Positions 2,860 through 31,248 are shown, counted from the first letter of the stretch. The stretch is 64,000 nucleotides of DNA from Carcharhinus amblyrhynchos (GCA_965287045.1 OZ336893.1:20150001-20214000); one strand, 5' to 3'. The notes: a model not told the origin generated them from the sequence alone. Numbers and translations are program-made.

Positions 2860-3720
2860 TTCTTACACATTTCCGAGAACCGTTGCATACACTTTGGCCG
2901 AATACCCGACTGCTTTGTAACAATTGTGATCCTGGATTAACGTTATTTTGACGTAACAAACTGGCTGCATAGAGGTGACAGAATTTGCTGTTTCTGATAA
3001 ATACCTTTTTGTTGAGAAAACTGTAGAAAAGTCCAACAAAGTCAGATTATTAATTGGGAGGTTTGAAAGCCTAGTTTTCTGCTGCACCACGTTTTACATT
3101 GCATCCGTGCCTGGTATGCAAACTGCATAAGCAGCAGACAAACAGCCACTAAAGAGTCAACTTCTTCAGAAGTTGCAGCTTGACCACATGGGCTGAAACG
3201 TAGGAGGGGAAGGGGAAAGTGCACAAGGTCGAAACTTCGGCAGTACTCACAATGTTGGTGGACTGGCGGTGAAAATAGGATCACAGCAGATGCTACTCAG
3301 AGTACGTGTGTGAGAGAGAAAATGAGCGAGCAAAAAAAGGGCGTTTCTTTGTCTGTACAGCAGGGAGACACTGAAATCAGTTGATAGAAAATAATGCACT
3401 GGATACTGTTGTGTGCTCGACTCTTTAAGATCAGGTGGCAGTTTAACAATCAGAATTTTTAAAAGTAAGTGTTTAAAATTATCTTTCAACCTCCTATCTA
3501 AGTTCTGGGAACTTGACAAGCCTGCTACGGGATTCTTTTTAGCTGTGAAAACGTAACTGCATCTAATTAACTACAGAAGCTGACGTAGGCTATGGGATTA
3601 ATCACAGCCGCTTCACAATGCCCATGAGCAAACCAGCCCTGCTAACTTTCTTTAAACAGCACATGCTAAGGAAGAGCTGGCTTGGGAGAAACTGATTTTT
3701 GGAAGGCTGGACAGAACGCG
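2860..3720 (+). promoter_or_regulatory. Putative internal promoter/5' region for the KIAA0754-type first exon
   Basis: TE-free; CpG visibly retained relative to the introns; CRE/ATF-like TGACGTAA at 2949-2956 and TGACGTAG at 3581-3588. Confidence 0.35.
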
Positions 3721-4695
3721 GAAGCTCACAAAACCTTTTTTGTTGAAGAGTGAAAGTTTGTCTTGCAGTATGTGACAGCTGGATACAACGCTTTCAAGAA
3801 CTGGGAAGAAAATTAACTTTGGATGTATCTCATAGTCTGTTTGTTTCAGTTCATAAACCAAGAGGAAAAAGACAACTTTTTGCCAACTGATATGGGGGAA
3901 AACACCTGGACTAAAATAGGAATAGATAAATAGCCAAGCCTTGCTGAATTAGGAGCTGACAACTCTTGGCACCAGAGTGTTTCATACTGGAGTTATTTTT
4001 GCTCTCAGTGCTCTTCACTGGATAAACAGTGTAAACTAGACACTAACTAGAATTCAGTATCAAATGACAGAATGGTTTAATAACAGCAAACTGCAAATAA
4101 TTGTTATTTAGGTAATGACCTGATATCATTCCTTTAAAAATCATCTGGAAACCTTTGGTCATGTTGTTGTACTGAAGTTGTACAGTTTTAAAAAATGCCA
4201 TGATGTTGCTAAGAAAGGAAGCAGCTGAAGCTCCACTGATTGAAGAACTTCCTGTCTTTGAATCTGCCGGAATATCCGCTAAGAATCACTTTTCAAAAGA
4301 AAACATGCTAGTTTTCAAGGACTGCCCCTTCTGCAGCAGCCGGGTACTTGGGCATTGTAGATTGTGGTTAAAATGAAAGGAATTTACAGAGTTGGACTAC
4401 AACATACAAAAGGCTTTATTCTTATCAACCATGATGCATATGAACAGAAGACCAGACAGGATCTGAATTGAATGCACAAATGTAGTTTTCTGTAGAGATG
4501 CTTTTACTGATCGGATGTGCCTCATTTATATGTGACAAGTGAGTAATATGCTGTTGGAGCATCTGCATATTAGAGACTGCTGATTAAATTACAATTCACA
4601 AATACATTTCTCTGTTGGAATTGAAGTGCAAGTCACTCAGTGCTGAAAATTTGACCTTTTTTTTTCTTGTGGATTATTTAAATCACTTTTGAATT

Positions 4696-7600
4696 ATGGG
4701 GAAACCGCTTAGCAGGCCAGACTGTTTGCGACGCAATAATCCCACCTGTTTAGGAAAAAATGAAGAGGATGATATGTACATTGAAGATTGTTACATTCCA
4801 CAAAGATCCATATATGACACTATGAGAATTAATGAACAGATAGACTTAGGATCAAAGACTAACCAGCCATCAAGAAGTTTTGCTGATCATACACACTCAG
4901 TAAACCAGAGGGCTGTCGAGTCTAGCACTTTATCAAGTAATGGAACTCCTACCACGTCCAGTGTATTTGAAACCAGAACTAGTTCTGAAAGTAAAAAATT
5001 AGATGAAAGAGTTATATTTGATGCATTAAAACTGAGCAGTGATGTGATTCGGTCCTCTGGCCCACCAAAAAGGAGACCTCATGTGGAGAGGAAGGAGAAT
5101 ATTAACAGGAGGTCATGGAAAGCTTTCCTGCCACCAAACTTTCCAGAGTTCACAGAAAGAACTGAAATGCCAGCAAATGAGCCTGCAGGCAGTGCAGATT
5201 TAAATAAAGAGAAAAGACATTCAAGCCACTTCCCTGTTGAAATTCCTAATCTGTTTCCTGAAAAAGAATTGACCACGCATACGTCCGAAAATGAAAAAGA
5301 TTCCGCACTTCAGCAAGGAGTAGAAAATAACTTGAAAGATGCTGCACTATTATCTCAAAGTTCAGGAAGTGGATGTGCTCCATTACTGGAATACAAGGAT
5401 GCATCAATGATGATGAGACATTTACCAGAAAATCAGGCATGTGTATCTGCAACATGGCCAAGAGCCTTCCGAGCTAAAGGAACATTAGAAGATGCTTCAT
5501 TTATGCATAGAAGAGCTTATGAAATAGCTCAAGAAAGGAAAACTGCCTATGCAACATCAATAGAGTGTAGAGGTATTTTGGATTTGCGTGCAACCAAACT
5601 AGATACTGACATATATAACGTGCAGGAGGTTATGGCTGAATTTGAAGAACAGGATTATGGCATGGAATTAAAAGGCTGTGTTCATTCTGAAGTTGAGGAG
5701 CAATGTAAAGATGAAAAAATGTTGTTTGATTCAGAATTTCTGAATGAAGAATCAGTGTTTCATCAGCTAGATGCTATAATCCGGGAAAGTACACAGGGAG
5801 ATTCGGACTCGCTGTTGCAATTTGAAAAAGAGGAGCCGAGATTAATTGAAAATGCTGAAGGATTAGTTCTACAACAGCTAGATGCTGCAATCATTGAAGT
5901 CACAGAGGGAGATATGGACTCACTGTTGCAATTTGAACAAGAGGAGCAGCGATTAACTGAAAACAGTGAAGAATCAGTTCTTCAACAGCTGGATGCTGCA
6001 ATCATGGAAGTCAGAGAGGAAGATATGGACTCACTGTTGCAATTTGAACAAGAGCAGCGATTAACTGAAAACAGTGAAGAATCAGTTCTTCAACAGCTGG
6101 ATGCTGCAATCATGGAAGTCAGAGAGGAAGATTTGGGCTCACTATTGCATTTTGAACAAGAGGAGCAGAAATTAACTAAAAATGAGGAATCAGTTCTTCA
6201 ACAGCTGGATGCTGCAATCATGAAAGTCAGAGAGGAAGATATGGACTCACTGTTGCAATTTGAACAAGAGGAGCAGAAATTAATTGAAAATGAGGAATCA
6301 GTTCTTCAACAGCTGGATGCTGCAATCATGAAAGTCAGAGAGGAAGATATGGACTCACTGTTGCAATTTGAACAAGAGGAGCAGAAATTAATTGAAAATG
6401 AGGAATCAGTTCTTCAACAGCTGGATGCTGCAATCATAGAAGTCACAGAGGAAGATGCAGACACTCTCTCAAGATTTGGAGAAGAGCAAATGCTGATTAA
6501 TGACAAAGAATTTGGTCAAAAATCAGCATTTCAACAACTAGATGCTGTAATGGAAACCAGAGAGGGTGATATGGACTCTCTGCTACAATTTGAAGAAGAG
6601 AGAAAACTATTTGAAGACCGAGATGTTTTTAATGAACAGTCAGCACTTCAGTTAGATGCTGAAATTTTTACAAGTACAGAGGCAGATACAGAATTCCTGT
6701 TACAATTTGAAGAAGTAGAGCAAAGCTTGTTTGAAGGCCGAGAAGCTTTTAATAAGCAGCCAACCCTTCAGTTGGATTCAGAAATCTTGGAAAACATGGA
6801 GGGTGATACAGACTCCCTACAACAATTTGAAGAAGAAGAACAACGATGTTTGATTGAAGACAGCGAAGTCCTTGATGAAGAATCAGTACTCCAACAGTTA
6901 GAAATTGTAATCTTGGAAAGCACAGAAGGTGATGCAAATTCTTTGAGATTTGAAGCAAAAGAGAACCAATTGTTGGTTGACAAAATAATGAAATATGATG
7001 TGTCAGTAGAAGCAGAAGAAAACTTTATGGCTATCCCAAAATCAAATTCTGCAGTTGGAGAATGTTCTGAAGGATTAGGTTGTAAATCACAAAGCAATAA
7101 AAAAGCGATTGAGGGAATAACTGCAACTGAGCAAAAATCAACTTGCACAGATTGGAAAAATAATATTCATCAGAAAGAGGAGTCTGAGTGCACCCTCAAA
7201 TCCAAAGTACAGCAGTCAGATGCATATTTTAGCACAGCTGGATCAGAGGAGGGTGACATCTATCAGAAAGATATTACAGCGATGTCTGGGGAGGACTATA
7301 ATATAACATTCTGTCATGATCTTTTGAATCGACCAAAATTTCCTTCCAAAGAGGTGCAAGTGAATTCAGAGGAAAACTCTAATTGTGATAAAGAAGTTGT
7401 GTTTGAAGTAAGAACTACAGGTACTGAACCTGAAACTTTAATCAAGGAATGTGGAATCCGTAATGCTGGCATAAAAAAAGATGGACAAAAGTCTGTTCGG
7501 TTAGAAGAACATGAAACAACTGTTCAATGCCCTAAAGATCCATCCATACCATTAAGAATGCATTTTGATTGCTGTCCTCAGGAACTAATAAATTTGTCCA

Positions 7601-8730
7601 GTGTGCAGAACACCAAGGAATTGTGGGAAAACTCTATGCAATTAAATAAACATGATATAATTGAATATCCTTCAACAGACTCCACTGTAACATCACATCT
7701 TGATCCCTCATACTGTGCTTTGGACATGGCGATGTTGCCCAATGACGGGCAGACCAAGGATACGGAGGCCACTTACGTACAAATAGAAGAATGTGAAATG
7801 GCTGTTGAGACCCGAACTACAAATTCTCTTTCGGAATCGAGTGACTATCAGTCAAATTATAGTCAGGAAGTATCAGTAATTTCTTGTGTGCCTGATGTAG
7901 GCTGTGATGTGGAGAAATTCCCTGGTGGCTGTGAAGAGGAGGAGCAGGGCCTTAATTTAGAGAAAGAAGGGAAGAAATGTATTGGATTTGAAGTACAGGA
8001 AATTGACATTCAAATAGAGTCATCAGACTTGAAAATGAAACCTGAAGCGATTGAGATTCCGCTTCACACTGAGGGTTGCACTGATGTTCAGTTTAATGAG
8101 CAGAAAGATTTGATAGATATGGATGAAGTAAAATGGTCAGAAAGTTTAGATGCTGTTGCTTCAGACACAGTGTGCATACATGGCTCAGAACAGCAATTTG
8201 AAAGTGATCCCCACAAAATAGATTTTGAGTCTGATATGTTTGTTCAAAACAGTAAAGGTTCCGGTGGAGTATTGTTGTTTGACATGGATATTGAGCAGCC
8301 ACTTGAGGCAATTAAGTTTCTTTTCCAATCTGATGAAGAAATGGACGTAAGTGAAGCAACTGTGACAACACAAGCAACTGCAGCTGAAAGTAGGAAAACA
8401 AACCTGAAAGCAGATGTGTGGGAAAATGTTTCTGGTTCATGCCTTGAGGATGACTTTATTGAAGAAGGAACGCTAGAATATTTATTTGAGGTAGAATCAC
8501 CGGAAGATTCCAATGACACTAACCCAAGGGTGTTGACCTTGGAGCCAGGTTCACTCAATATAATTTTAGACACTGAAGCAGAGGAATCCACTGTGGAGCC
8601 AAATGAAGTTGATTTTTCTGTTTTAACTGAAGAACTGGATGCAGATATTGAGGTATTTATGTTTAAAATCACTAATTTTCCTGACCAAATTAATGAAGAG
8701 TGTGACATGAAAGCATATGAAACAATTTAA
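4696..8730 (+). CDS. KIAA0754: KIAA0754-like giant exon/ORF nested in a MACF1 intron (1344 aa unspliced; 1319 aa if spliced at 8652 as an alternative first exon of MACF1)
   Basis: Uninterrupted 4035-nt ORF with strong Kozak context (A at -3, G at +4) and an in-frame TGA at 4690-4692. N-terminus MGKPLSRPDCLR...YIEDCYIPQRSIYDTMRINEQID...KLDERVIFDALKL resembles vertebrate KIAA0754 (recalled). The remainder is acidic and low-complexity. Confidence 0.85.
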   Translation: MGKPLSRPDCLRRNNPTCLGKNEEDDMYIEDCYIPQRSIYDTMRINEQIDLGSKTNQPSRSFADHTHSVNQRAVESSTLSSNGTPTTSSVFETRTSSESKKLDERVIFDALKLSSDVIRSSGPPKRRPHVERKENINRRSWKAFLPPNFPEFTERTEMPANEPAGSADLNKEKRHSSHFPVEIPNLFPEKELTTHTSENEKDSALQQGVENNLKDAALLSQSSGSGCAPLLEYKDASMMMRHLPENQACVSATWPRAFRAKGTLEDASFMHRRAYEIAQERKTAYATSIECRGILDLRATKLDTDIYNVQEVMAEFEEQDYGMELKGCVHSEVEEQCKDEKMLFDSEFLNEESVFHQLDAIIRESTQGDSDSLLQFEKEEPRLIENAEGLVLQQLDAAIIEVTEGDMDSLLQFEQEEQRLTENSEESVLQQLDAAIMEVREEDMDSLLQFEQEQRLTENSEESVLQQLDAAIMEVREEDLGSLLHFEQEEQKLTKNEESVLQQLDAAIMKVREEDMDSLLQFEQEEQKLIENEESVLQQLDAAIMKVREEDMDSLLQFEQEEQKLIENEESVLQQLDAAIIEVTEEDADTLSRFGEEQMLINDKEFGQKSAFQQLDAVMETREGDMDSLLQFEEERKLFEDRDVFNEQSALQLDAEIFTSTEADTEFLLQFEEVEQSLFEGREAFNKQPTLQLDSEILENMEGDTDSLQQFEEEEQRCLIEDSEVLDEESVLQQLEIVILESTEGDANSLRFEAKENQLLVDKIMKYDVSVEAEENFMAIPKSNSAVGECSEGLGCKSQSNKKAIEGITATEQKSTCTDWKNNIHQKEESECTLKSKVQQSDAYFSTAGSEEGDIYQKDITAMSGEDYNITFCHDLLNRPKFPSKEVQVNSEENSNCDKEVVFEVRTTGTEPETLIKECGIRNAGIKKDGQKSVRLEEHETTVQCPKDPSIPLRMHFDCCPQELINLSSVQNTKELWENSMQLNKHDIIEYPSTDSTVTSHLDPSYCALDMAMLPNDGQTKDTEATYVQIEECEMAVETRTTNSLSESSDYQSNYSQEVSVISCVPDVGCDVEKFPGGCEEEEQGLNLEKEGKKCIGFEVQEIDIQIESSDLKMKPEAIEIPLHTEGCTDVQFNEQKDLIDMDEVKWSESLDAVASDTVCIHGSEQQFESDPHKIDFESDMFVQNSKGSGGVLLFDMDIEQPLEAIKFLFQSDEEMDVSEATVTTQATAAESRKTNLKADVWENVSGSCLEDDFIEEGTLEYLFEVESPEDSNDTNPRVLTLEPGSLNIILDTEAEESTVEPNEVDFSVLTEELDADIEVFMFKITNFPDQINEECDMKAYETI
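5746..6975 (+). repeat. Coding tandem repeat, ~11 units of 108-123 bp (EESVLQQLDAAIMEVREEDMDSLLQFEQEEQKLIEN)
   Basis: Units 6184-6291 and 6292-6399 are identical 108-mers; flanking units diverge progressively. Confidence 0.95.
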
Positions 8731-8736
8731 TTGTAC

Positions 8737-8834
8737 AATAAATTTAAAATGATCTTTTTTGATGCATATACAAATGCATCCAGCAGTCTCTAACAGAGAT
8801 TCAACTAAACCGTGATAAGTCATCAGTGAATAAA
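8737..8834 (+). terminator. Two AATAAA polyadenylation signals right after the KIAA0754-like stop codon
   Basis: AATAAA at 8737-8742 and 8829-8834; stop codon ends at 8730. Confidence 0.45.
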
Positions 8835-10134
8835 ACTTGAGTCATATCCTGACCTCCCCCCACCAAAGTCAGTTAAATGCAGTGTTTGCGAAATGCTGTT
8901 ATTATAATGTGATTGAAACAAAAGCTTTCTTCAAGTCGTCAGGCTCCAACAGCTGTAATGTTCTCACTGTGGCCTGGTGCTCATTTAACTTGCCCAGATC
9001 AAAAATTTGACTATCGACGCAAAACATTGTATACAAAATTTTAGACATATAACAATTAAAATATGCATAAAAATTCAGTATTGACTAACACTGATTTATT
9101 TCTCATTGCTGGAGAGCTAAAATGAACATGTTTGTTGAATTCGCAACTGGATAACCTACAAGTTCAAGTATCAGATTCCCAGGCAAATTGCTTCAGTTAG
9201 AACCTGTAAATCAGCTGACTTTCAAACTTTGCCACCTTTATTGAATAAGTCTGGTTGATTCTAAGGATGTTAAATAGATATGAGTATAACTGGCTGTTAG
9301 AGTAGCATTGTTGGCAACAGTTCAAAAATCTGGCCAAAACCATTTCACTATCATGATAGAGCAGAAGTTTTAAAATTCCAACAAAAAAAATATAAAAATG
9401 GTGACTGTAAAAATGATATCTTGGTTAATACTCAAATTCATATTTTGGCTAAATTGTAAAAAGAGGAACTTTGGTAATATCAGATTTACTATAAGCAATG
9501 CGTGCGCACCAAAAGCGTCAACCGAGGAAACATCAAAGTGTGCATGTATTACACATGGTCATAAATATGCAGAACCATAGATATTGTTGTGGTCTGTTAC
9601 TTGACATAAAATGTTGCTTACATGCAAATTTAAAACCAGCCTCACCGAGTATCATTGATGAAATAATGCTTGGACGCAAAATGCTTGCACGCGAGTTACC
9701 TTCCTGAGAACAGCATATACTGGATAACTTCACCATAGCTATGTAACACCTGAATGAGCAAGTTTGTTCATTTGGGGATATGATACCTTTTTCTATGTTA
9801 GGATTACCTTCCTTATCACACAATGCATATTCCCTGAGAGTGTAGGAAATGGGTCATTCTCCATTGTGTATCAATATTGTCATTTACGTGGACTATAAAA
9901 TGTTTGGCAGGGTTGAGTAGAAAAAGCAGTGTGGCAGACGATTCTTCTTAACGCCATTAATGGCCCAGCTGAATATCTGGAACCCCTATCTAGGAAACTG
10001 ACTTTTATGTTTTTTCTTGAGTCTGCATCATTGTTCCTTCATTGGATGTTAAGATTTTTCTATTTTTTGTTCACGTATGTATTTAAATATGTTCAGGATT
10101 TTTGTGTTGTACATGAATAGGACACTCTCAATTT

Positions 10135-10410
10135 GGGGCAACACAATGGTTAGCAATGCTGCCTCACAGCGCCAGGGACCCAGGTTAGATTCTGGCCTTG
10201 ATTGTGTGGAGTTTGGACATTCTCCCTGTATCTGTGTGAGATTCCTCCTAGTGTTCCAGTTTCTTCCCACAGTACAAAGATGTGCTGGCCTTGGTAAATG
10301 TACAGATTTACAGCAGATATGCTTGGCCTAGGAGGAATGCTGTTTCAGAGAATCGGCGCAGACTCAATGAGCCGAATGGTTTCCTTCTGCACTGGAGGGA
10401 TTTTTTGGTT
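10135..10410 (+). mobile_element. HE1-like V-SINE (tRNA head, V domain, CR1-derived tail)
   Basis: TGGTTAGCAATGCTGCCTCACAGCGCCAGGGACCC...TGTGTGGAGTTTG...GCCGAATGG. Confidence 0.85.
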
Positions 10411-11409
10411 CTTGTTTCTTTTATTCACTTAAATCATGGGCAGTGCTGGCTGGCCAGCATTTATTGCCACCCTTAGTTGCCTGAGGGTAGTTGAGTGCAG
10501 TGAAAAGTAAGGGGTGATTATTCTAATCTTTCTAGAAATTGCATTGTTAGGGCCAATTGCTAGAAAGGTTGTATAATTATATAGTTGCATTGAACTTCGT
10601 TACTCAAATATTCAAACTATGTGACAATTCATAACAAGTTTGGAAAGTTTTGATATTTTTACATTTTTGTGCAGTAATTATTCCACAACTTTTCAGTTAT
10701 GTATTGTTCTGCTATGTGTTTATACAAATGGGATTATGCTTAGCAACAGATACAGATGGAAGTTAGTGATATCATTGTTTGATTTTATGAAAATGGTTAC
10801 CCAGCTGAGCATAGAAACCACTGAAAATTATATCTCATGTTTACTAACCTTATTGCTTTAAAAACATAGCTACAGTACTAGTTTTTTTTTGTCTGCAACC
10901 CATTGAGTTCCAAATTAGTCAGGAAACCCTTACCTTGATCAGCTCCCAAAACCTCTTGCTGACTGCTAGTGGAATCTATAGTTTTTAAATCTAAGAATAC
11001 AGCCGCATGTTCCTTGTAATAGACAAAGCATAGCAGAAGCCAGATCCTCCTTCACTGACCTTGGTTAAAAGGATGTCATTTGAAACTGCAGCCAACTCAA
11101 TTTGTTTTGAATAATCTGAGCTAATTTAATACAGTCACATGACCCACATCTCTGAATTATCTTCTGTAATAGTTTAGCCTGATGCTATTGAAACCGGAAT
11201 CTGGTTATCTGATTTAATTGCTTGAACTTCAATATATGCATGCAGGCAGACGATCATTTGAGCAGAGTTTGAGGGCCAAAGAAATCTTGTTTTCCTATAT
11301 AAAAAAATTACTACTTTTATTAATTTGCCAGATTCAGGCATTCATACTAAAATTGACATCTATTCCTCGTTTCCATGAAAAGTTGGTAATAGGCCACCTT
11401 GAGCTATGA

Positions 11410-11634
11410 TGTGAAGATGCCGGTGTTGGACTGGGTTGGGGGCAGTAAGAAGTCTCTCAATACCAGGTTAAAAGTTCAACAGGTTTATTTGGAATCACAA
11501 GGTTTTAGAGTGCTGCTCCTTCATCAAATGAATGAAGAGCCTCTCCACTCACCTGATGAAGGAGCAGAGCTCCAAAAGCTTGTGATTCCAAATAAACCTC
11601 CTTGACTTTAATCTGGTGTTGTGAGACTACTTAC
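11410..11634. mobile_element. Palindromic Penelope-derived element with a degenerate hammerhead core
   Basis: ~82-bp inverted arms 11445-11526 and 11554-11634; CTGATGA-A-GGAGC-AGA-GCTCC-AAAAGC at 11553-11579. Confidence 0.7.
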
Positions 11635-13009
11635 ATTTCGTGAACTACTGCAGACTGAGTGAAGGTCAATCAAGAAGTTCCCAATGGCTCATGCTTTTTA
11701 ATGTTTGAGAGGAAAATCAATTCTTAATAGTTACACATTTAAGTCTTCAATATATTTTCTTTCTCCTCACCATCTTTCCAGTTTCTATAGCTTTTCCTTT
11801 GCTAATACGTTAGATCATTTAAAATGGTGTCGTCTGTGAAATTATTCCTTGCCCTTCATTCTTCAAAAGCTAATTCTGCTTAACTCAATTATCACCCATT
11901 GCCATAGAATTACTACTTGGTTGAGTTTTTTTCCTATCATCAGCTGCATTGTGTATATTAGACTGTCTGCGCTGCATGGGAAGCATATGCTTGAAATCAG
12001 ATCTCCTGGCATGAGAAAATTGCACTTATTAACTGTGATTTTACTTTTGCCTGTTGTAGATAAGTAAGGGCATTGTTAGCAAAGCCCTTGGGCATCAGTT
12101 CCTCTCTTTTTTACATTCAAAATATTCTACATTTACTATTGTGAAAGCTGCTGGAACATTTTCCAGCATTGGTCATTTATTTGATCAAGTACAGTTTTGC
12201 ACAAATGTTCTTGGTCAGGATTCTTTCCTGGATATCTAAAAACAATGGCATATAAATATGTCAAGGACTGTAGCACAAAATTGGCAACAGCATATTAGCA
12301 AATCGTTTTGCGTTCTGTCCAAATTGGTTTTTCAGTTGACTATTGAAGATGGGTTGGCAGTCCATTGCTGCAATTTTACTCCACTGTCCAAGATGAATTT
12401 TGAAAGTAATTTGTTGATAACTTGTCCACTGCTGCCCATTTCCTCAGTATAGGGTGGGGAAATCAATTAAAATGACTGGCTTCAGAGTTTTCTGGGAGTT
12501 GGCTTACCGCATCAAACAGCTAAAATTAAATATTGTTTCTTGGCACAAATATTTGAAGTCATTAACAAGTTTTTCTAAACTTTGGACAATGGTGAAAAGT
12601 AAAATAAAAGAAAAATGTTTTGATTTTTAAAGCTGATGATGTTCATTCTTGGGTACTTTGTTTCTCTTGTGCTTTGCAAATCAGTGTGTGGCTCCAGATA
12701 ACACATACTACACAACAATCAGGGAAGATTCACAATCACTGTATATTCAGTCAAATAGACTATCCAATTAATGTTTACAAATTGTTTATCTTAGCAGTGG
12801 GAATACCTAAAATTTGAACAGTTCATAATTTTTCAACTTGTATTATGCACCATTTTGCCTCTGGGCCTAGAATTGTACAATACATTGTCAAACAATCTGT
12901 CCCATGGGGTAGTCATTTTTTTACACATTTCCTCTGTTCCATGGTACCTGAAGTGTGAACAACCTGATGAGTGTTTGATTTGATTTTGAATTATCACATG
13001 TATTAGTAT

Positions 13010-13285
13010 GCAATGAAAAATATTGTTTCGTGCACACTTTACAGATGAAGCATACCGTTCCTAGAGAGGGAAAGGAGAGAGTGCAGAATGTAGTGTTACA
13101 TTCATAGCCAGGGTGTAGAGAAAGATCAGCCTATTGCGAGATAGGTCCATTCCAAAGTTTGATGGCAGCAGGGAAGGAGCTGTTCTTGAGTCGGTTGTAC
13201 GTGACCTCAGACTTTTGTATCTTTTTCCCAATGGAAGAAGATGGAAGTGTGTGTGTTTGGGGTGTGTGGTGTCCTTAATTTTTAA
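13010..13285 (-). mobile_element. Rex1/Babar LINE 3' fragment
   Basis: Antisense peptide IKDTTHPKHTHFHLLPLGKRYKSLRSRTT, continuing after a frameshift as KNSSFPAAIKLWN; typical of the Rex1 RT C-terminus. Confidence 0.75.
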
Positions 13286-14306
13286 ACTACTAGTTTTTTT
13301 TTCCATTAAAAACAAGCACACTTGGCTCAAAACCCACTACATCAGTGAGAGCCCACTTGAAACAATTACGTATGTATTTCTACTTCCCCTTCCCAGGTCC
13401 ATGTAAATAAATTCTGTGCTTGGAAAATGTTTGTACCCAACTTGAGGGAATTGGGCCAAATCAAGAAATTAACCCAACTTTTTAACTCTTGCAGCTTTTA
13501 GGGGAACAAATGGCTTAATTTTCCCTACTAAATGAGTAGTAGAATTTATCTGTGCTGCAAAAAAAGCAAAGATTCTACTAGGAGAGTTGAAATTAGTTCA
13601 GTTAGACTCTTGAGCATTAAACAGAGAATTACTTTTAGCAGTGTCTATAAATAACTTCCTAAGACAATCTTCATAATTTTACCAAATATGACTATTTAGA
13701 TTTTCATTCTTAAAAAATGAAACATAAAATATAAGTTGGCTAAGCTCCTTTGATTCTCTGACTACTGAACCTGTAATGTGTAAAGAATAGCATAACTCAA
13801 AGTTGAAGAAAATGCTAGAAAGTATTTGATTGTTAGACATCATAGGGTTAAGGAAGATTGTTCGTTATTAGGATTCAGTAGTGTTCTTTTAATTGTTTCC
13901 ATCCATTGATTGTGAGTTTACTGAGTTTTTTTTTTGTGGGAGTGTGATCTGAGGACTTGAGAGGTGGTTTTGTTTTTGTATAAACTATGATTCAATCTTT
14001 GGCTTGCTTTGATCTTTGATAACAATTCTGGTAAAATACAGACCTTTCAAAACAAACATTACCCAGTTTTGTACCTTCATGCACTTTTTATATTTTGTGC
14101 CTTAAACCTTAGCTTTTGTCGGTACTGCGTTCCAGATGTGTTTTTGCATATTTAATAAGTGATTTTAATTTTTTATTGACTCAATGCAGATACACATCAC
14201 AATCCTCCCATTTCTGTGCAAAATTGTATTATTTCATAATATTTCAAGGTGAGCTATTATGACAGTATTGTAGACTGATTTGTTTCTCATTATTCTTCTG
14301 TTTTAG

Positions 14307-14468
14307 ATATTCCAGAAAGTTCAGGTGGACCCCATCCAGTACAAACTTCAGCAGGCTAATGGGGTGGGACAGGGTCTTATTCAGAGTGCTGCGAAGAATG
14401 CCAACACCCAAGGACTTGAACATGATCTGGATGAGATGAACACCAGATGGAACACACTCAATAAAAAG
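14307..14468 (+). CDS. MACF1: MACF1 spectrin-rod exon ([11 protein letters not shown]...RWNTLNKK), phase 0-0
   Basis: ttttag|ATA ... AAG|gtcagt; 162 nt; matches MACF1 FQKEQVDPLQ...RWNTLNKK. Confidence 0.93.
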
Positions 14469-28774: not shown

Positions 28775-29856
28775 GTAAGAACTAGGCGCAGGAGTAGGCC
28801 ATCTGGCCCCTCGCGCCTGCTCTGCCATTCAAAATGATCATAGCTGATCTTTCTGTGGACTCAGCTTCACTTACCCGCCTGCTCACCATAACCCTTAATT
28901 CCTTTACTGTTCAAAAATTTATCTATCCTTGCCTTAAAAACATGCAGTGAGATAAGAACATAAGAACATAAGAAATAGGAGCAGAAGTAGGCCATCTGGC
29001 CCTTCGAGCCTGCCCCGCCATTCAATAAGATCATGGCTGATCTGTCGTGGCTCAGTTCCACTTTCCCGCCCTCTCCCCATAACCCTTAATCCCTTCTCTT
29101 ATCAAAAACCCATCAACCCGCTTCTTAAAAATATTTAGCGAGGCAGCCTCCACCACTTCAACGGGCAGAGAATTCCAGAGATTCACCACCCTTTGAGTGA
29201 AGAAGTTCCTCCTCAACTCCGTTCTGAACCGCCCCCCCTTTATCTTGAGGCTGTGCCCCCATAACCTCAGCTGCTTCACTGGGCAGGGAATTCCACAGAT
29301 TCACAACCTTTTATGTGAAGAAGTTCCTCCTCAACTCAGTCCTAAATCTGCTTCCCCTTAGTTTGAGGCTATGCCCCCTAGTCCTAGTTTCACCCGTTAG
29401 TGGGAACAACTTCCCTGTTTCTATCTTATCTGTTCTATTCATAATCTTACATGTTTCTATAAGATCTCCCCTCATTCGTCTGAATTCCAATGAGTTTAGC
29501 CCCAGTCTACTCAGTCTCTCCTCATAAGCCAACCCTCTCAACTCTGGAATCAACCTCGCAAATTTCCTCTGCACTGCCTCCAGTGCTAGTGTATCCTTTC
29601 TCGAGTAAGGAGACCAAAACACTACATAGTACTCTAGGTATGCCCTCACCAACGCCTTGTACAGCTGCAACATAACCTCGCTGTTTTTAAACTCCATCCC
29701 TCTAGCAGTGAAGGACAAAATTCCATTTGCCGCCTTAATTACCTGCCGTACCTGCGACCAACTCCTTGTAATTTTTGCAGAAGGACACCTAGGCCCCTCT
29801 GCACAGCAGCATGCTGCAATTTTTTTACCATTTAAATAATAGTCTATTTTGCTGTT
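28775..29856 (-). mobile_element. CR1 LINE inserted into the Gypsy element
   Basis: Antisense ORF 29311-29718 is the CR1 RT C-terminus; TSD AGGAAC at 28769-28774 and 29857-29862. Confidence 0.9.
28956..29260 (-). mobile_element. Second CR1 3' fragment nested inside the first CR1
   Basis: (ATAAGAAC)n tail; TSD ATAA at 28952-28955 and 29261-29264; the host CR1 resumes after it. Confidence 0.85.
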
Positions 29857-31248
29857 AGGAACAAGCAGAGGTATGTGGTTCTGAAAAATTAATGGAGTTA
29901 CAGCAAGATCAGACGATAAAGGATTTGTATCATAAAGCCTACTCGGAAAAGGAATCAGAGTGTATCCCAGAATGCTATTATCTTAAGGATAAAGTCTTAA
30001 GGATCTGGAGACCTTGGCAGTTAGCACAGATGAAAAATGGGCACAAGTTCACCAGATTGTATTCTACCAGCAACACAGACTGGAAGTATTGCGAGTGGCA
30101 CACACATAACCTATAGGACCTCATCTAGGAGTGAGGAAAACTCAGGCTAAGACACGGAAGTATTTTTATTCAGCTGGATTACATAACAATGTGGTTGAAT
30201 TTTGTCATATCTGTCATACATGTTAGATGGTAGAAAAGCCACAAGCAGTGATAAACCAGCATCTTTGTTGTCAGTTCCCACGTTTGAAGAACCTTTTTAC
30301 ACGGGTTATAATTGATTGCATAGGTCCCCTCCCTAAAACCAAAAGTGGGAACCAGTATTTGATAACCGTGATGGATGTGTCTATCAGATTTACAGAGGCA
30401 ACTCCATTACAGAATGTCAAGATAAAAAAGGTTATGGAGGAGTTGCTCGCTTTCTTTACCCATTATGGATTACCCAGGGAGATTCAGTCAGACCAAGGGT
30501 CCAATTTTACTGCTAAATTTTTTAAGGAGGTCATGGATAGTTTAAGCATCAGACACTTTACATAGAGTGTGTACCATCTTGAATCCCAGACAGCACTGGA
30601 AAGTTGGCAACAGACCCTAAATACCATGTTGAGGGCTTATTGCCAGGATAATTTTTTTTAATCCTTGTTATTTGTATCCTTCATATAACACAAAATATGT
30701 TGAAATCATACTATAATCTGACTAGGTCATTGTCATAGCGTTAGCAATTATTTTTGTGTTTCCACCAACATTTCTGAGCAAGTGTGGTTTAATGGAGAAG
30801 TAAAGCAAAATATCACCGTTAACATTCATTGATGTTTATTTAAACACTATTTATGGAACTTGATGTGTATTTACCATTCGTGGTTTTTAAATGTATTGTA
30901 CCAGCAGACTTCTTTTGAAACATTCAATTAATTTAAAAAAAAGGTACATTTCAGAATTTTGGATTCACTAAGTTAGATGAATGGATGTTTGAACAAGTTT
31001 GAATGGATGGTTTGCAAATTAGTCCCACAAGTGAAGCAAAATCCTTTCACAGGTATTTACAGTCGTAATTTTACAGTTCTTCAAACTGGAGATTTTCGTC
31101 CTTTTTTGAATGGAATGCCCAATCAAGTTCCAATAAAAAACGAAGACTTTTGTAGTTCTTGACGTGTTCTTGTTTAAATGTTAAGATATTCCTATTTTAT
31201 TGTGCATATCTATTCAATATTTCCTCCACTGATATTTCATTTCCTCAG

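Follow-up and report, generated by a model that had tools for sequence, protein, structure and literature searches.

The DNA analyzed here is a window of 64,000 nucleotides from Carcharhinus amblyrhynchos (GCA_965287045.1 OZ336893.1:20150001-20214000), in which a long coding exon carries an acidic tandem repeat. An earlier note, made from the sequence alone, had read the repeated unit as a clathrin-box and acidic dileucine signal, and the protein as a lipid-anchored, disordered clathrin/adaptor scaffold attached to a spectrin rod and a microtubule-binding end. The questions raised by this locus are what the unit is, where it comes from and whether the clathrin reading accounts for it. The gene was delimited as follows, all positions being counted from the first base of the window.

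4696..8652, + strand: coding portion of an alternative first exon of MACF1, of the KIAA0754 (isoforms 6/7) kind; acidic, 1319 aa, without Pfam domain
8653..14306, + strand: intron after the first exon, GT..AG, phase 0, frame checked, joint present in transcript contigs of relatives
14307..14468, + strand: first common MACF1 spectrin-rod exon (tblastn and splice joints), followed by more spectrin exons to the window end

The enclosing ORF comprises 1344 codons (4696-8730, + strand). An in-frame stop is located two codons 5' of the translation start, which displays an A at -3 and a G at +4; the first exon yields no Pfam match above cut-off. Residues 1-160, used as query, matched 234 proteins, and those listed (120 of the 234; a jawless-fish outgroup may be among the other 114) are named KIAA0754, MACF1 isoforms 6/7 or dystonin. 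The closest named homologue among the matches listed originates from the shark Scyliorhinus torazame, with 94% identity over the N-terminal query, and the same residues are 53-72% identical between the shark and bony-vertebrate MACF1 isoforms 6/7. In a tree of the N-terminal block (30 rows), the C. amblyrhynchos exon is grouped with P0001 and P0002 (96/93), dystonin is split off at 100/100 and the path to bony MACF1 is the shorter one. The downstream spectrin exons are also nearer to MACF1 than to dystonin by tblastn. Judged from these relationships, the shark exon is an orthologue of the KIAA0754-type MACF1 first exon and not of its dystonin counterpart.

The attachment to a spectrin rod proposed in the earlier note was confirmed by splicing. 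The GT..AG joint 8652/14307 is present in contigs of runs X1, X2 and X3, which represent three organisms and three studies, and a single contig of run X3 spans unit 7 of the array through the joint. The splice evidence comes from 4 of 14 putative-RNA runs (RNA type guessed), all of close relatives and not of C. amblyrhynchos itself; the joint is absent in run X5, whose contigs cover the intron. In the relatives' contigs the first exon continues in frame into the MACF1 spectrin exons, with neither a CH nor a plakin domain in between. The 3' end of the shark gene lies outside the 64-kb window, and we infer its EF-hand/GAS2 microtubule-binding end from orthologous full-length proteins, which end in EF-hand and GAS2 (as in the Xenopus orthologue P0125). 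The architecture is as claimed in the earlier note but is not new: it is that of an annotated MACF1 isoform present across jawed vertebrates.

A number of additional features were observed around this exon. Read-through of the donor site (8653-8730, stop 8728-8730) would lead to a stand-alone product of 1344 aa, and many KIAA0754 database entries are of such an unspliced type. Upstream, transcript-like contigs begin at or before 4000 and enter the coding sequence without a break, and 25 ATGs are found in 3501-4695; this segment could be a long 5' leader rich in upstream ATGs, could contain several start sites or could reflect unspliced RNA. High-copy interspersed repeats occupy 10100-10480, 11440-11620 and 12990-13250 of the first intron, and retroelement-like reading frames are found near 29314-30562.

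The first part of the exon is defined by the following elements.

4696..4749, + strand: candidate acylation anchor Gly2, Ser6, Cys10 and Cys18 (putative myristoylation and palmitoylation), from residue invariance
4696..5145, + strand: conserved N-terminal block, aa 1-150, common to the paralogous dystonin exon, with RVIF at 5008 and RRSWK at 5107
5446..5460, + strand: TWP block, T-W-P-R nearly invariant, used as positional anchor

Gly2, Ser6, Cys10 and Cys18 display no variation in 59/59 aligned rows, and the N-terminal MGKPLS is found in 168/178 bony-vertebrate proteins. The N-terminus fails the PROSITE-type myristoylation pattern used for comparison at Lys3; some Gly-Lys N-termini are myristoylated. 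The lipid anchor of the earlier note is retained in so far as Gly2, Cys10 and Cys18 are invariant, and on these residues the acylation of the exon's protein is likely. Three short conserved blocks of this region were presumed to be PP1 RVxF-like (RVIF, 5008-5019), PKA-like (RRSW, 5107-5121) and 14-3-3-like (TWP, 5446-5460). Near the exon end (8302-8555), the blocks LxAIxFLFQS, DDFIExGxLExLFE and LxLxPGxL are kept in three cartilaginous fish, and an EPGxLxxLF block similar to them is found in teleosts, turtles and the coelacanth.

The array itself is in frame on the + strand and extends approximately over 5743-6990. Our own segmentation yields 11 units of 36-42 aa, which agrees with the roughly 11 units of 36-41 aa claimed earlier.

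5743..5853, + strand: unit 1, homologous by position to the single bony block, box at 5812-5826, pairs with S. torazame unit 1
5854..6396, + strand: units 2-6 (36-37 aa), nearly identical copies of recent origin, with boxes at 5923, 6034, 6142, 6250 and 6358
6397..6990, + strand: units 7-11, older and diverged, 38-42 aa, box intact in units 8 (6580) and 9 (6697), lost in 7, 10 and 11

TRF detects a period of 108 nt with 90% matches over 5745-6456 (score 1018) and a looser period of 120 nt beyond; the tandem repeat itself is far beyond chance. Its 421 aa include 121 Asp/Glu, 29 Lys/Arg, 2 Pro and no Trp. Units 2-6 are 87-100% identical to one another at the nucleotide level and have no separate counterparts in S. 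torazame, while each of units 7-11 has its own counterpart among S. torazame units 2-6, the pairs being given by the tree for units 8-11 (38 columns, many open forks) and by order and alignment for unit 7. The near-identical core is not bridged by any transcript contig, and read depth over it is higher in X1 and X5, which is not a measure of copy number. The array is found in three cartilaginous-fish proteins only, with 11 units in C. amblyrhynchos, 6 in S. torazame and 8 in P0001; further searches yielded only P0001 (cluster members P0184 and P0185) and P0002. P0121-P0123 were considered as further relatives and rejected as unrelated repeat proteins on the basis of their sequences. The unrelated and apparently bacterial P0121 displays, at aa 630-1100, DMDEMLAWDQE repeats resembling the shark unit (E 8e-14), and acidic-hydrophobic units of this nature thus arise independently.

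The origin of the unit becomes apparent upon comparison with bony vertebrates. A core T-x-S-E-L-x-F-E-E-D-E-R is found in 147/178 of their proteins, the 31 lacking it being mostly of the dystonin type but including the mis-predicted model P0094 and, under a MACF1 name, P0133 and P0153, and it is single-copy in 134/134 delimitable exons. When numbered from its Phe (position 0), the 29 distinct versions of the block share invariant Ser-4, Leu-2, Phe0 and Glu+1, together with Glu-3 in 29/29 and Lys/Arg at -7. The distance from TWP to the motif Phe is 57-99 aa in 142 bony proteins versus 118-123 aa in the three sharks. An HMM built from the shark units placed its best domain on the bony block in 146 of the 159 proteins with any domain; the scan covered 180 proteins, two of them P0001 cluster members, and the scores were 1-8 bits in the 11 rows printed. 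Using a half-unit profile, the bony block was the best window in 12/12 MACF1 proteins (0/300 shuffles each); in the two dystonin controls the profile did not pick the block (133/300 and 10/300 shuffles). The reverse profile, built from bony blocks, picks in-register units in the three sharks (5, 0 and 1 of 300 shuffles). The alignment of unit 1 with the tetrapod and coelacanth block is ungapped over about 40 residues. The 20 upstream residues, which are independent of the anchoring, match separately (5, 17 and 9 of 20,000 shuffles) in a test based on the 123 of 147 bony blocks without indel. Direct comparison of the shark unit and the bony block by hhalign gave an E of 5e-4 with a probability of only 32%. 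In our reading the array arose by tandem amplification from an ancestral block carried once by bony vertebrates. The comparison is one of three cartilaginous-fish proteins with bony vertebrates, and either state at the differing positions may be the older one.

The bony MACF1 isoforms 6/7 thus share with the shark exon the same N-terminal block, the splice to the spectrin rod and a docking block at about the same place. They differ in carrying this block once instead of 6-11 times, in having Glu where sharks have Leu-3 and Lys/Arg where sharks have Asp-7, and in possessing a second block of the DSVQMFLELE type; many mammals also have an unrelated Pro/Ala repeat farther on. This second block (S-x3-F-L-E-L-E-x2-C, P0007 aa 464-480 and equivalents) occurs in 143 proteins, is predicted as a confident helix and has no clear shark counterpart. 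Compared with the shark unit, it is among the top three windows in 7/12 proteins, and the reverse comparison succeeded in one of the three sharks (0, 167 and 59 of 300 shuffles). In teleosts the second block reads D-L-F-L-E, which is similar to the Y-acidic motif DIYLE of JIP1. The short dystonin isoform likewise consists of the N-terminal block followed by spectrin repeats, EF-hand and GAS2, but its exon of about 430 aa is devoid of docking block and array. In dystonin (P0107, P0111, P0138-P0152) a paralogous internal first exon leads to such short spectrin-EF-GAS2 isoforms without docking block.

The alternative that survives best is a restricted form of the earlier reading, namely that in cartilaginous fish only, a clathrin box, possibly together with an AP dileucine, was created by substitutions at -3 and -7 and amplified into a multivalent membrane-anchored scaffold tied to microtubules. 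We consider it unlikely, even though the motif counts were accurate: 8/11 units fit L[IVLMF]x[IVLMF][DE] (7 LLQFE and 1 LLHFE), DxxxLL overlaps the box in 8/8 of them, and the box is kept in 17/25 cartilaginous-fish units (8/11, 6/6 and 3/8 across the three proteins). The five recently duplicated units are all box-intact. Over units 1-10, Asp-7 and Leu-3 undergo zero amino-acid change and Leu-3 shows synonymous change, a constraint defined on few codons of related copies (unit 11 is shifted by a deletion). Among the distinct units, Leu-3 is found in 19/24 and Asp-7 in 20/24. The claim that the motif is kept in diverged edge units holds for unit 1 but fails for units 7 (LSRFG), 10 (LQQFE) and 11 (SLRFE); in units 7 and 10 Leu-3 and Phe0 survive and Leu-2, required by the box, is lost. 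In C. amblyrhynchos, two units have lost a box that their S. torazame orthologues keep, and 5/8 P0001 units are boxless, which speaks against the scaffold. An excess of the motif over chance was overstated, because all eight boxes descend, on unit similarity, from a single unit, and when a unit is shuffled (100,000 shuffles), 14.5% of the results match the box, 30% the dileucine and 2.6% both in overlap.

Further evidence against the scaffold comes from the homologous site. The bony residues at shark Leu-3 and Asp-7 are Glu and Lys/Arg; a clathrin box or dileucine in register is found in 0/147 bony-vertebrate proteins, and 77/134 bony exons are without a box match anywhere. Clathrin/AP binding as a general role of the site is not upheld, and the loss of the motif in orthologues, named beforehand as counting against the claim, is what is observed outside the sharks. 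Without Leu-3 there is no box match, and the dileucine needs both Leu-3 and Asp-7, precisely the residues at which sharks and bony vertebrates differ. Since the ancestral L-x-F-E already gives three of the four positions, the shark Leu-3 completes the box pattern, and the likeness to a clathrin signal is probably a by-product of the block's sequence. In addition, the conservation of the QLDxxI half of the unit equals or exceeds that of the box, and this half is left unexplained by the clathrin model.

Epsin and AP180 tails carry DPW and NPF motifs and ENTH/ANTH domains. L-x-F-[DE] may resemble the TACC3 clathrin-binding helix. NPF, DPW/DPF, FxDxF and W-box motifs number 0 in all three cartilaginous-fish exons, and no ENTH/ANTH domain was found in the exon with Pfam. 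The paxillin-type LD motif [LV][DE]x[LM][LM]xx[LM] is also absent from all three exons. FFAT, LIR, LD, B56 and W-acidic were tried as the unit's identity and rejected, as their patterns do not account for the unit. Like the shark exon, which has no predicted tertiary fold, epsin, AP180, beta-arrestin and GTSE1 (the latter annotated to microtubules and clathrin-selected) have matches to the L-Phi-x-Phi-[DE] consensus (PMC10132805, PMC8769072), in their case in a disordered region. The shark array differs from such tails in its absence of AP2-ear/EH motifs, its scarcity of Pro, its helix propensity, its single regular unit and its lack of conservation outside sharks. As given in the tables of a human phage display (PMC8769072), the clathrin propeller picked SADLIQFEE from MARF1, a near-twin of the shark peptide with Ile, as well as the boxes of the microtubule protein GTSE1, and the LIQF form occurs twice in the P0001 exon. 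Of the 132 clathrin rows of PMC8769072, the 74 counted include 48 L-I-x-[FWL] and no L-L-x-F, in a screen that recovered 0/9 known motifs. Clathrin binding is reported for the paralogue dystonin (PMC4171495, where Bhanot 2011 is cited), and a spectraplakin-clathrin link would therefore not be wholly unprecedented. Weak binding of the isolated shark peptide to clathrin in vitro is plausible; a selected cellular clathrin role is less plausible.

A second alternative is a near-neutral coding minisatellite, where an acidic spacer grew through slippage or unequal crossing-over and only a single copy, or the bulk charge, matters. The variation of copy number between 6, 8 and 11 and the recent addition of five units are in line with it, as are the unrelated Pro/Ala repeats elsewhere in the exon in 31/134 bony exons and the 77% identity of orthologous units, which lies between the values of the flanks (81% and 68%). 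It is nevertheless rather improbable in view of the substitution pattern: pN/pS between units amounts to 0.26-0.38 over all columns, and to 0.05-0.21 in the motif versus 0.52-0.67 outside it, with QLDA at 0.05-0.16 versus the box at 0.14-0.20, all these values being derived from few codons and non-independent unit pairs. Among the distinct units of three species, Phe0 is kept in 23/24 and the Gln, Leu and Asp of QLD in 22/23, 21/23 and 21/23, respectively, which is also contrary to neutrality. These codon comparisons show purifying selection on both halves of the unit while the copies turn over.

Structure prediction was then used to consider the form of the unit. An AlphaFold model of the array, obtained from a 3-row alignment, displays long helices and no tertiary fold (mean pLDDT 58, pTM 0.18), with pLDDT 75-85 over residues 141-230. 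In the coelacanth exon, modelled from a 59-row alignment, helices are predicted only at the conserved block (pLDDT 80-96) and the second block, the rest being disordered. The disordered region claimed in the earlier note is thus retained for the exon, which has no predicted tertiary fold, but the array is modelled as helices. The hydrophobic moment is weak (reached by 81/2000 shuffles for the second half and 531/2000 for the first half); for the whole unit the best helical angle is 99 degrees and the moment is reached by 139/2000 shuffles. PDB sequence searches, Foldseek, Pfam and Atlas gave nothing usable for the array or unit, and VIA-align returned generic single helices only (best Z 6.4). 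A structural rod, i.e. a long helix or coiled coil in which 36 residues form 10 turns and bury a Leu/Phe stripe, is suggested by the long modelled helices and the helical angle, but is very improbable given the low pTM from 3 rows, an Asp/Glu excess unfavourable for a single stable helix or homodimer, insertions and deletions between units and a moment so readily matched by shuffles. The models and the composition are compatible with short acidic helices that would form on binding.

The explanation that we favor, and consider reasonably probable, is that an ancestral docking site, acidic and helical, has been multiplied within a disordered leader that is probably acylated. According to this proposal, an acidic leader of 1319 aa, mostly disordered by prediction, replaces the actin-binding and plakin domains, as the spliced contigs indicate. 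The leader would most likely anchor in the membrane through N-terminal acylation, and the rod and EF-hand/GAS2 end, known from the orthologues, would therefore tether microtubules to membrane and not to actin. A docking element of about 40 residues within the leader has been kept since the split of sharks and bony fish, as its conservation indicates. Cartilaginous fish have tandemly multiplied it to 6-11 copies, new ones being added as old ones decay. In each unit, QLDxxI and SLLQFEEEExxL would most likely form a pair of short amphipathic helices, both acidic, that fold on one partner surface. The shark Leu-3 would share its helix face with the Phe and with the hydrophobic residue at +7. With multiple units on one surface, the array would thereby raise avidity for the ancestral partner and lengthen the tether.

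As for this partner, no match was found in PDB sequences, Pfam or Atlas. By analogy, a trafficking receptor with a basic groove, for instance the TPR of kinesin light chain, can be put forward as a guess with little chance of being correct. The register of the bony block is like that of the kinesin-light-chain W-acidic and LFP-acidic motifs of SKIP, gadkin and nesprin-2, in that L-x-F-E-E parallels the SKIP LEWDD quoted in PMC6214655. The bony block also resembles W-acidic motifs by a loose pattern, a Trp beside an acidic residue within 40 aa, in 127/147 proteins. The kinesin motifs differ in having Trp where the MACF1 block has Phe, and the shark array has no Trp. The strict pattern [LMTAFSRI]xW[DE], taken from a table of PMC8769072, occurs 0 times in the array and near the motif in 3/134 bony exons. 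In the Benz screen, human O94854 appears under KLC1 with only one Pro/Ala-repeat peptide that contains no motif, which was taken as neutral. The shark partner may have changed, because Asp-7 and Leu-3 differ from the bony residues and the bony Arg-9 and Lys/Arg-7 are gone.

Among the matches listed in searches of mostly non-subscription literature, at the level of titles and abstracts, no paper was found on the function of the KIAA0754-type MACF1 isoform or of the shark array. The isoform account of a 2021 review (PMC8012552) describes six MACF1 isoforms, all with a plakin domain, and the short KIAA0754-type isoform is not among them. PMC13740326 was set aside as unrelated, its relevant part being concerned with a C-terminal IDR. 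The main text of 10.64898/2026.07.03.735260 contains no term matches, and its supplements may hold peptides of the exon.

The gene and isoform are already annotated and lineage-specific repeats are common in this first exon; in the sharks, a conserved but uncharacterised motif of a known MACF1 isoform has undergone a genuine, lineage-specific expansion. If the array were a clathrin scaffold, coated membranes would be tied directly to microtubules, with intact boxes born by duplication and old ones decaying. Should clathrin bind the shark form, a linear motif would here have changed its partner through one or two substitutions and been multiplied afterwards, a clean example of such a switch. 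The array singles out one block of about 40 residues, with a core invariant from teleosts to humans, in a little-studied short MACF1 isoform, and would constitute a natural high-avidity bait for the partner of this block.
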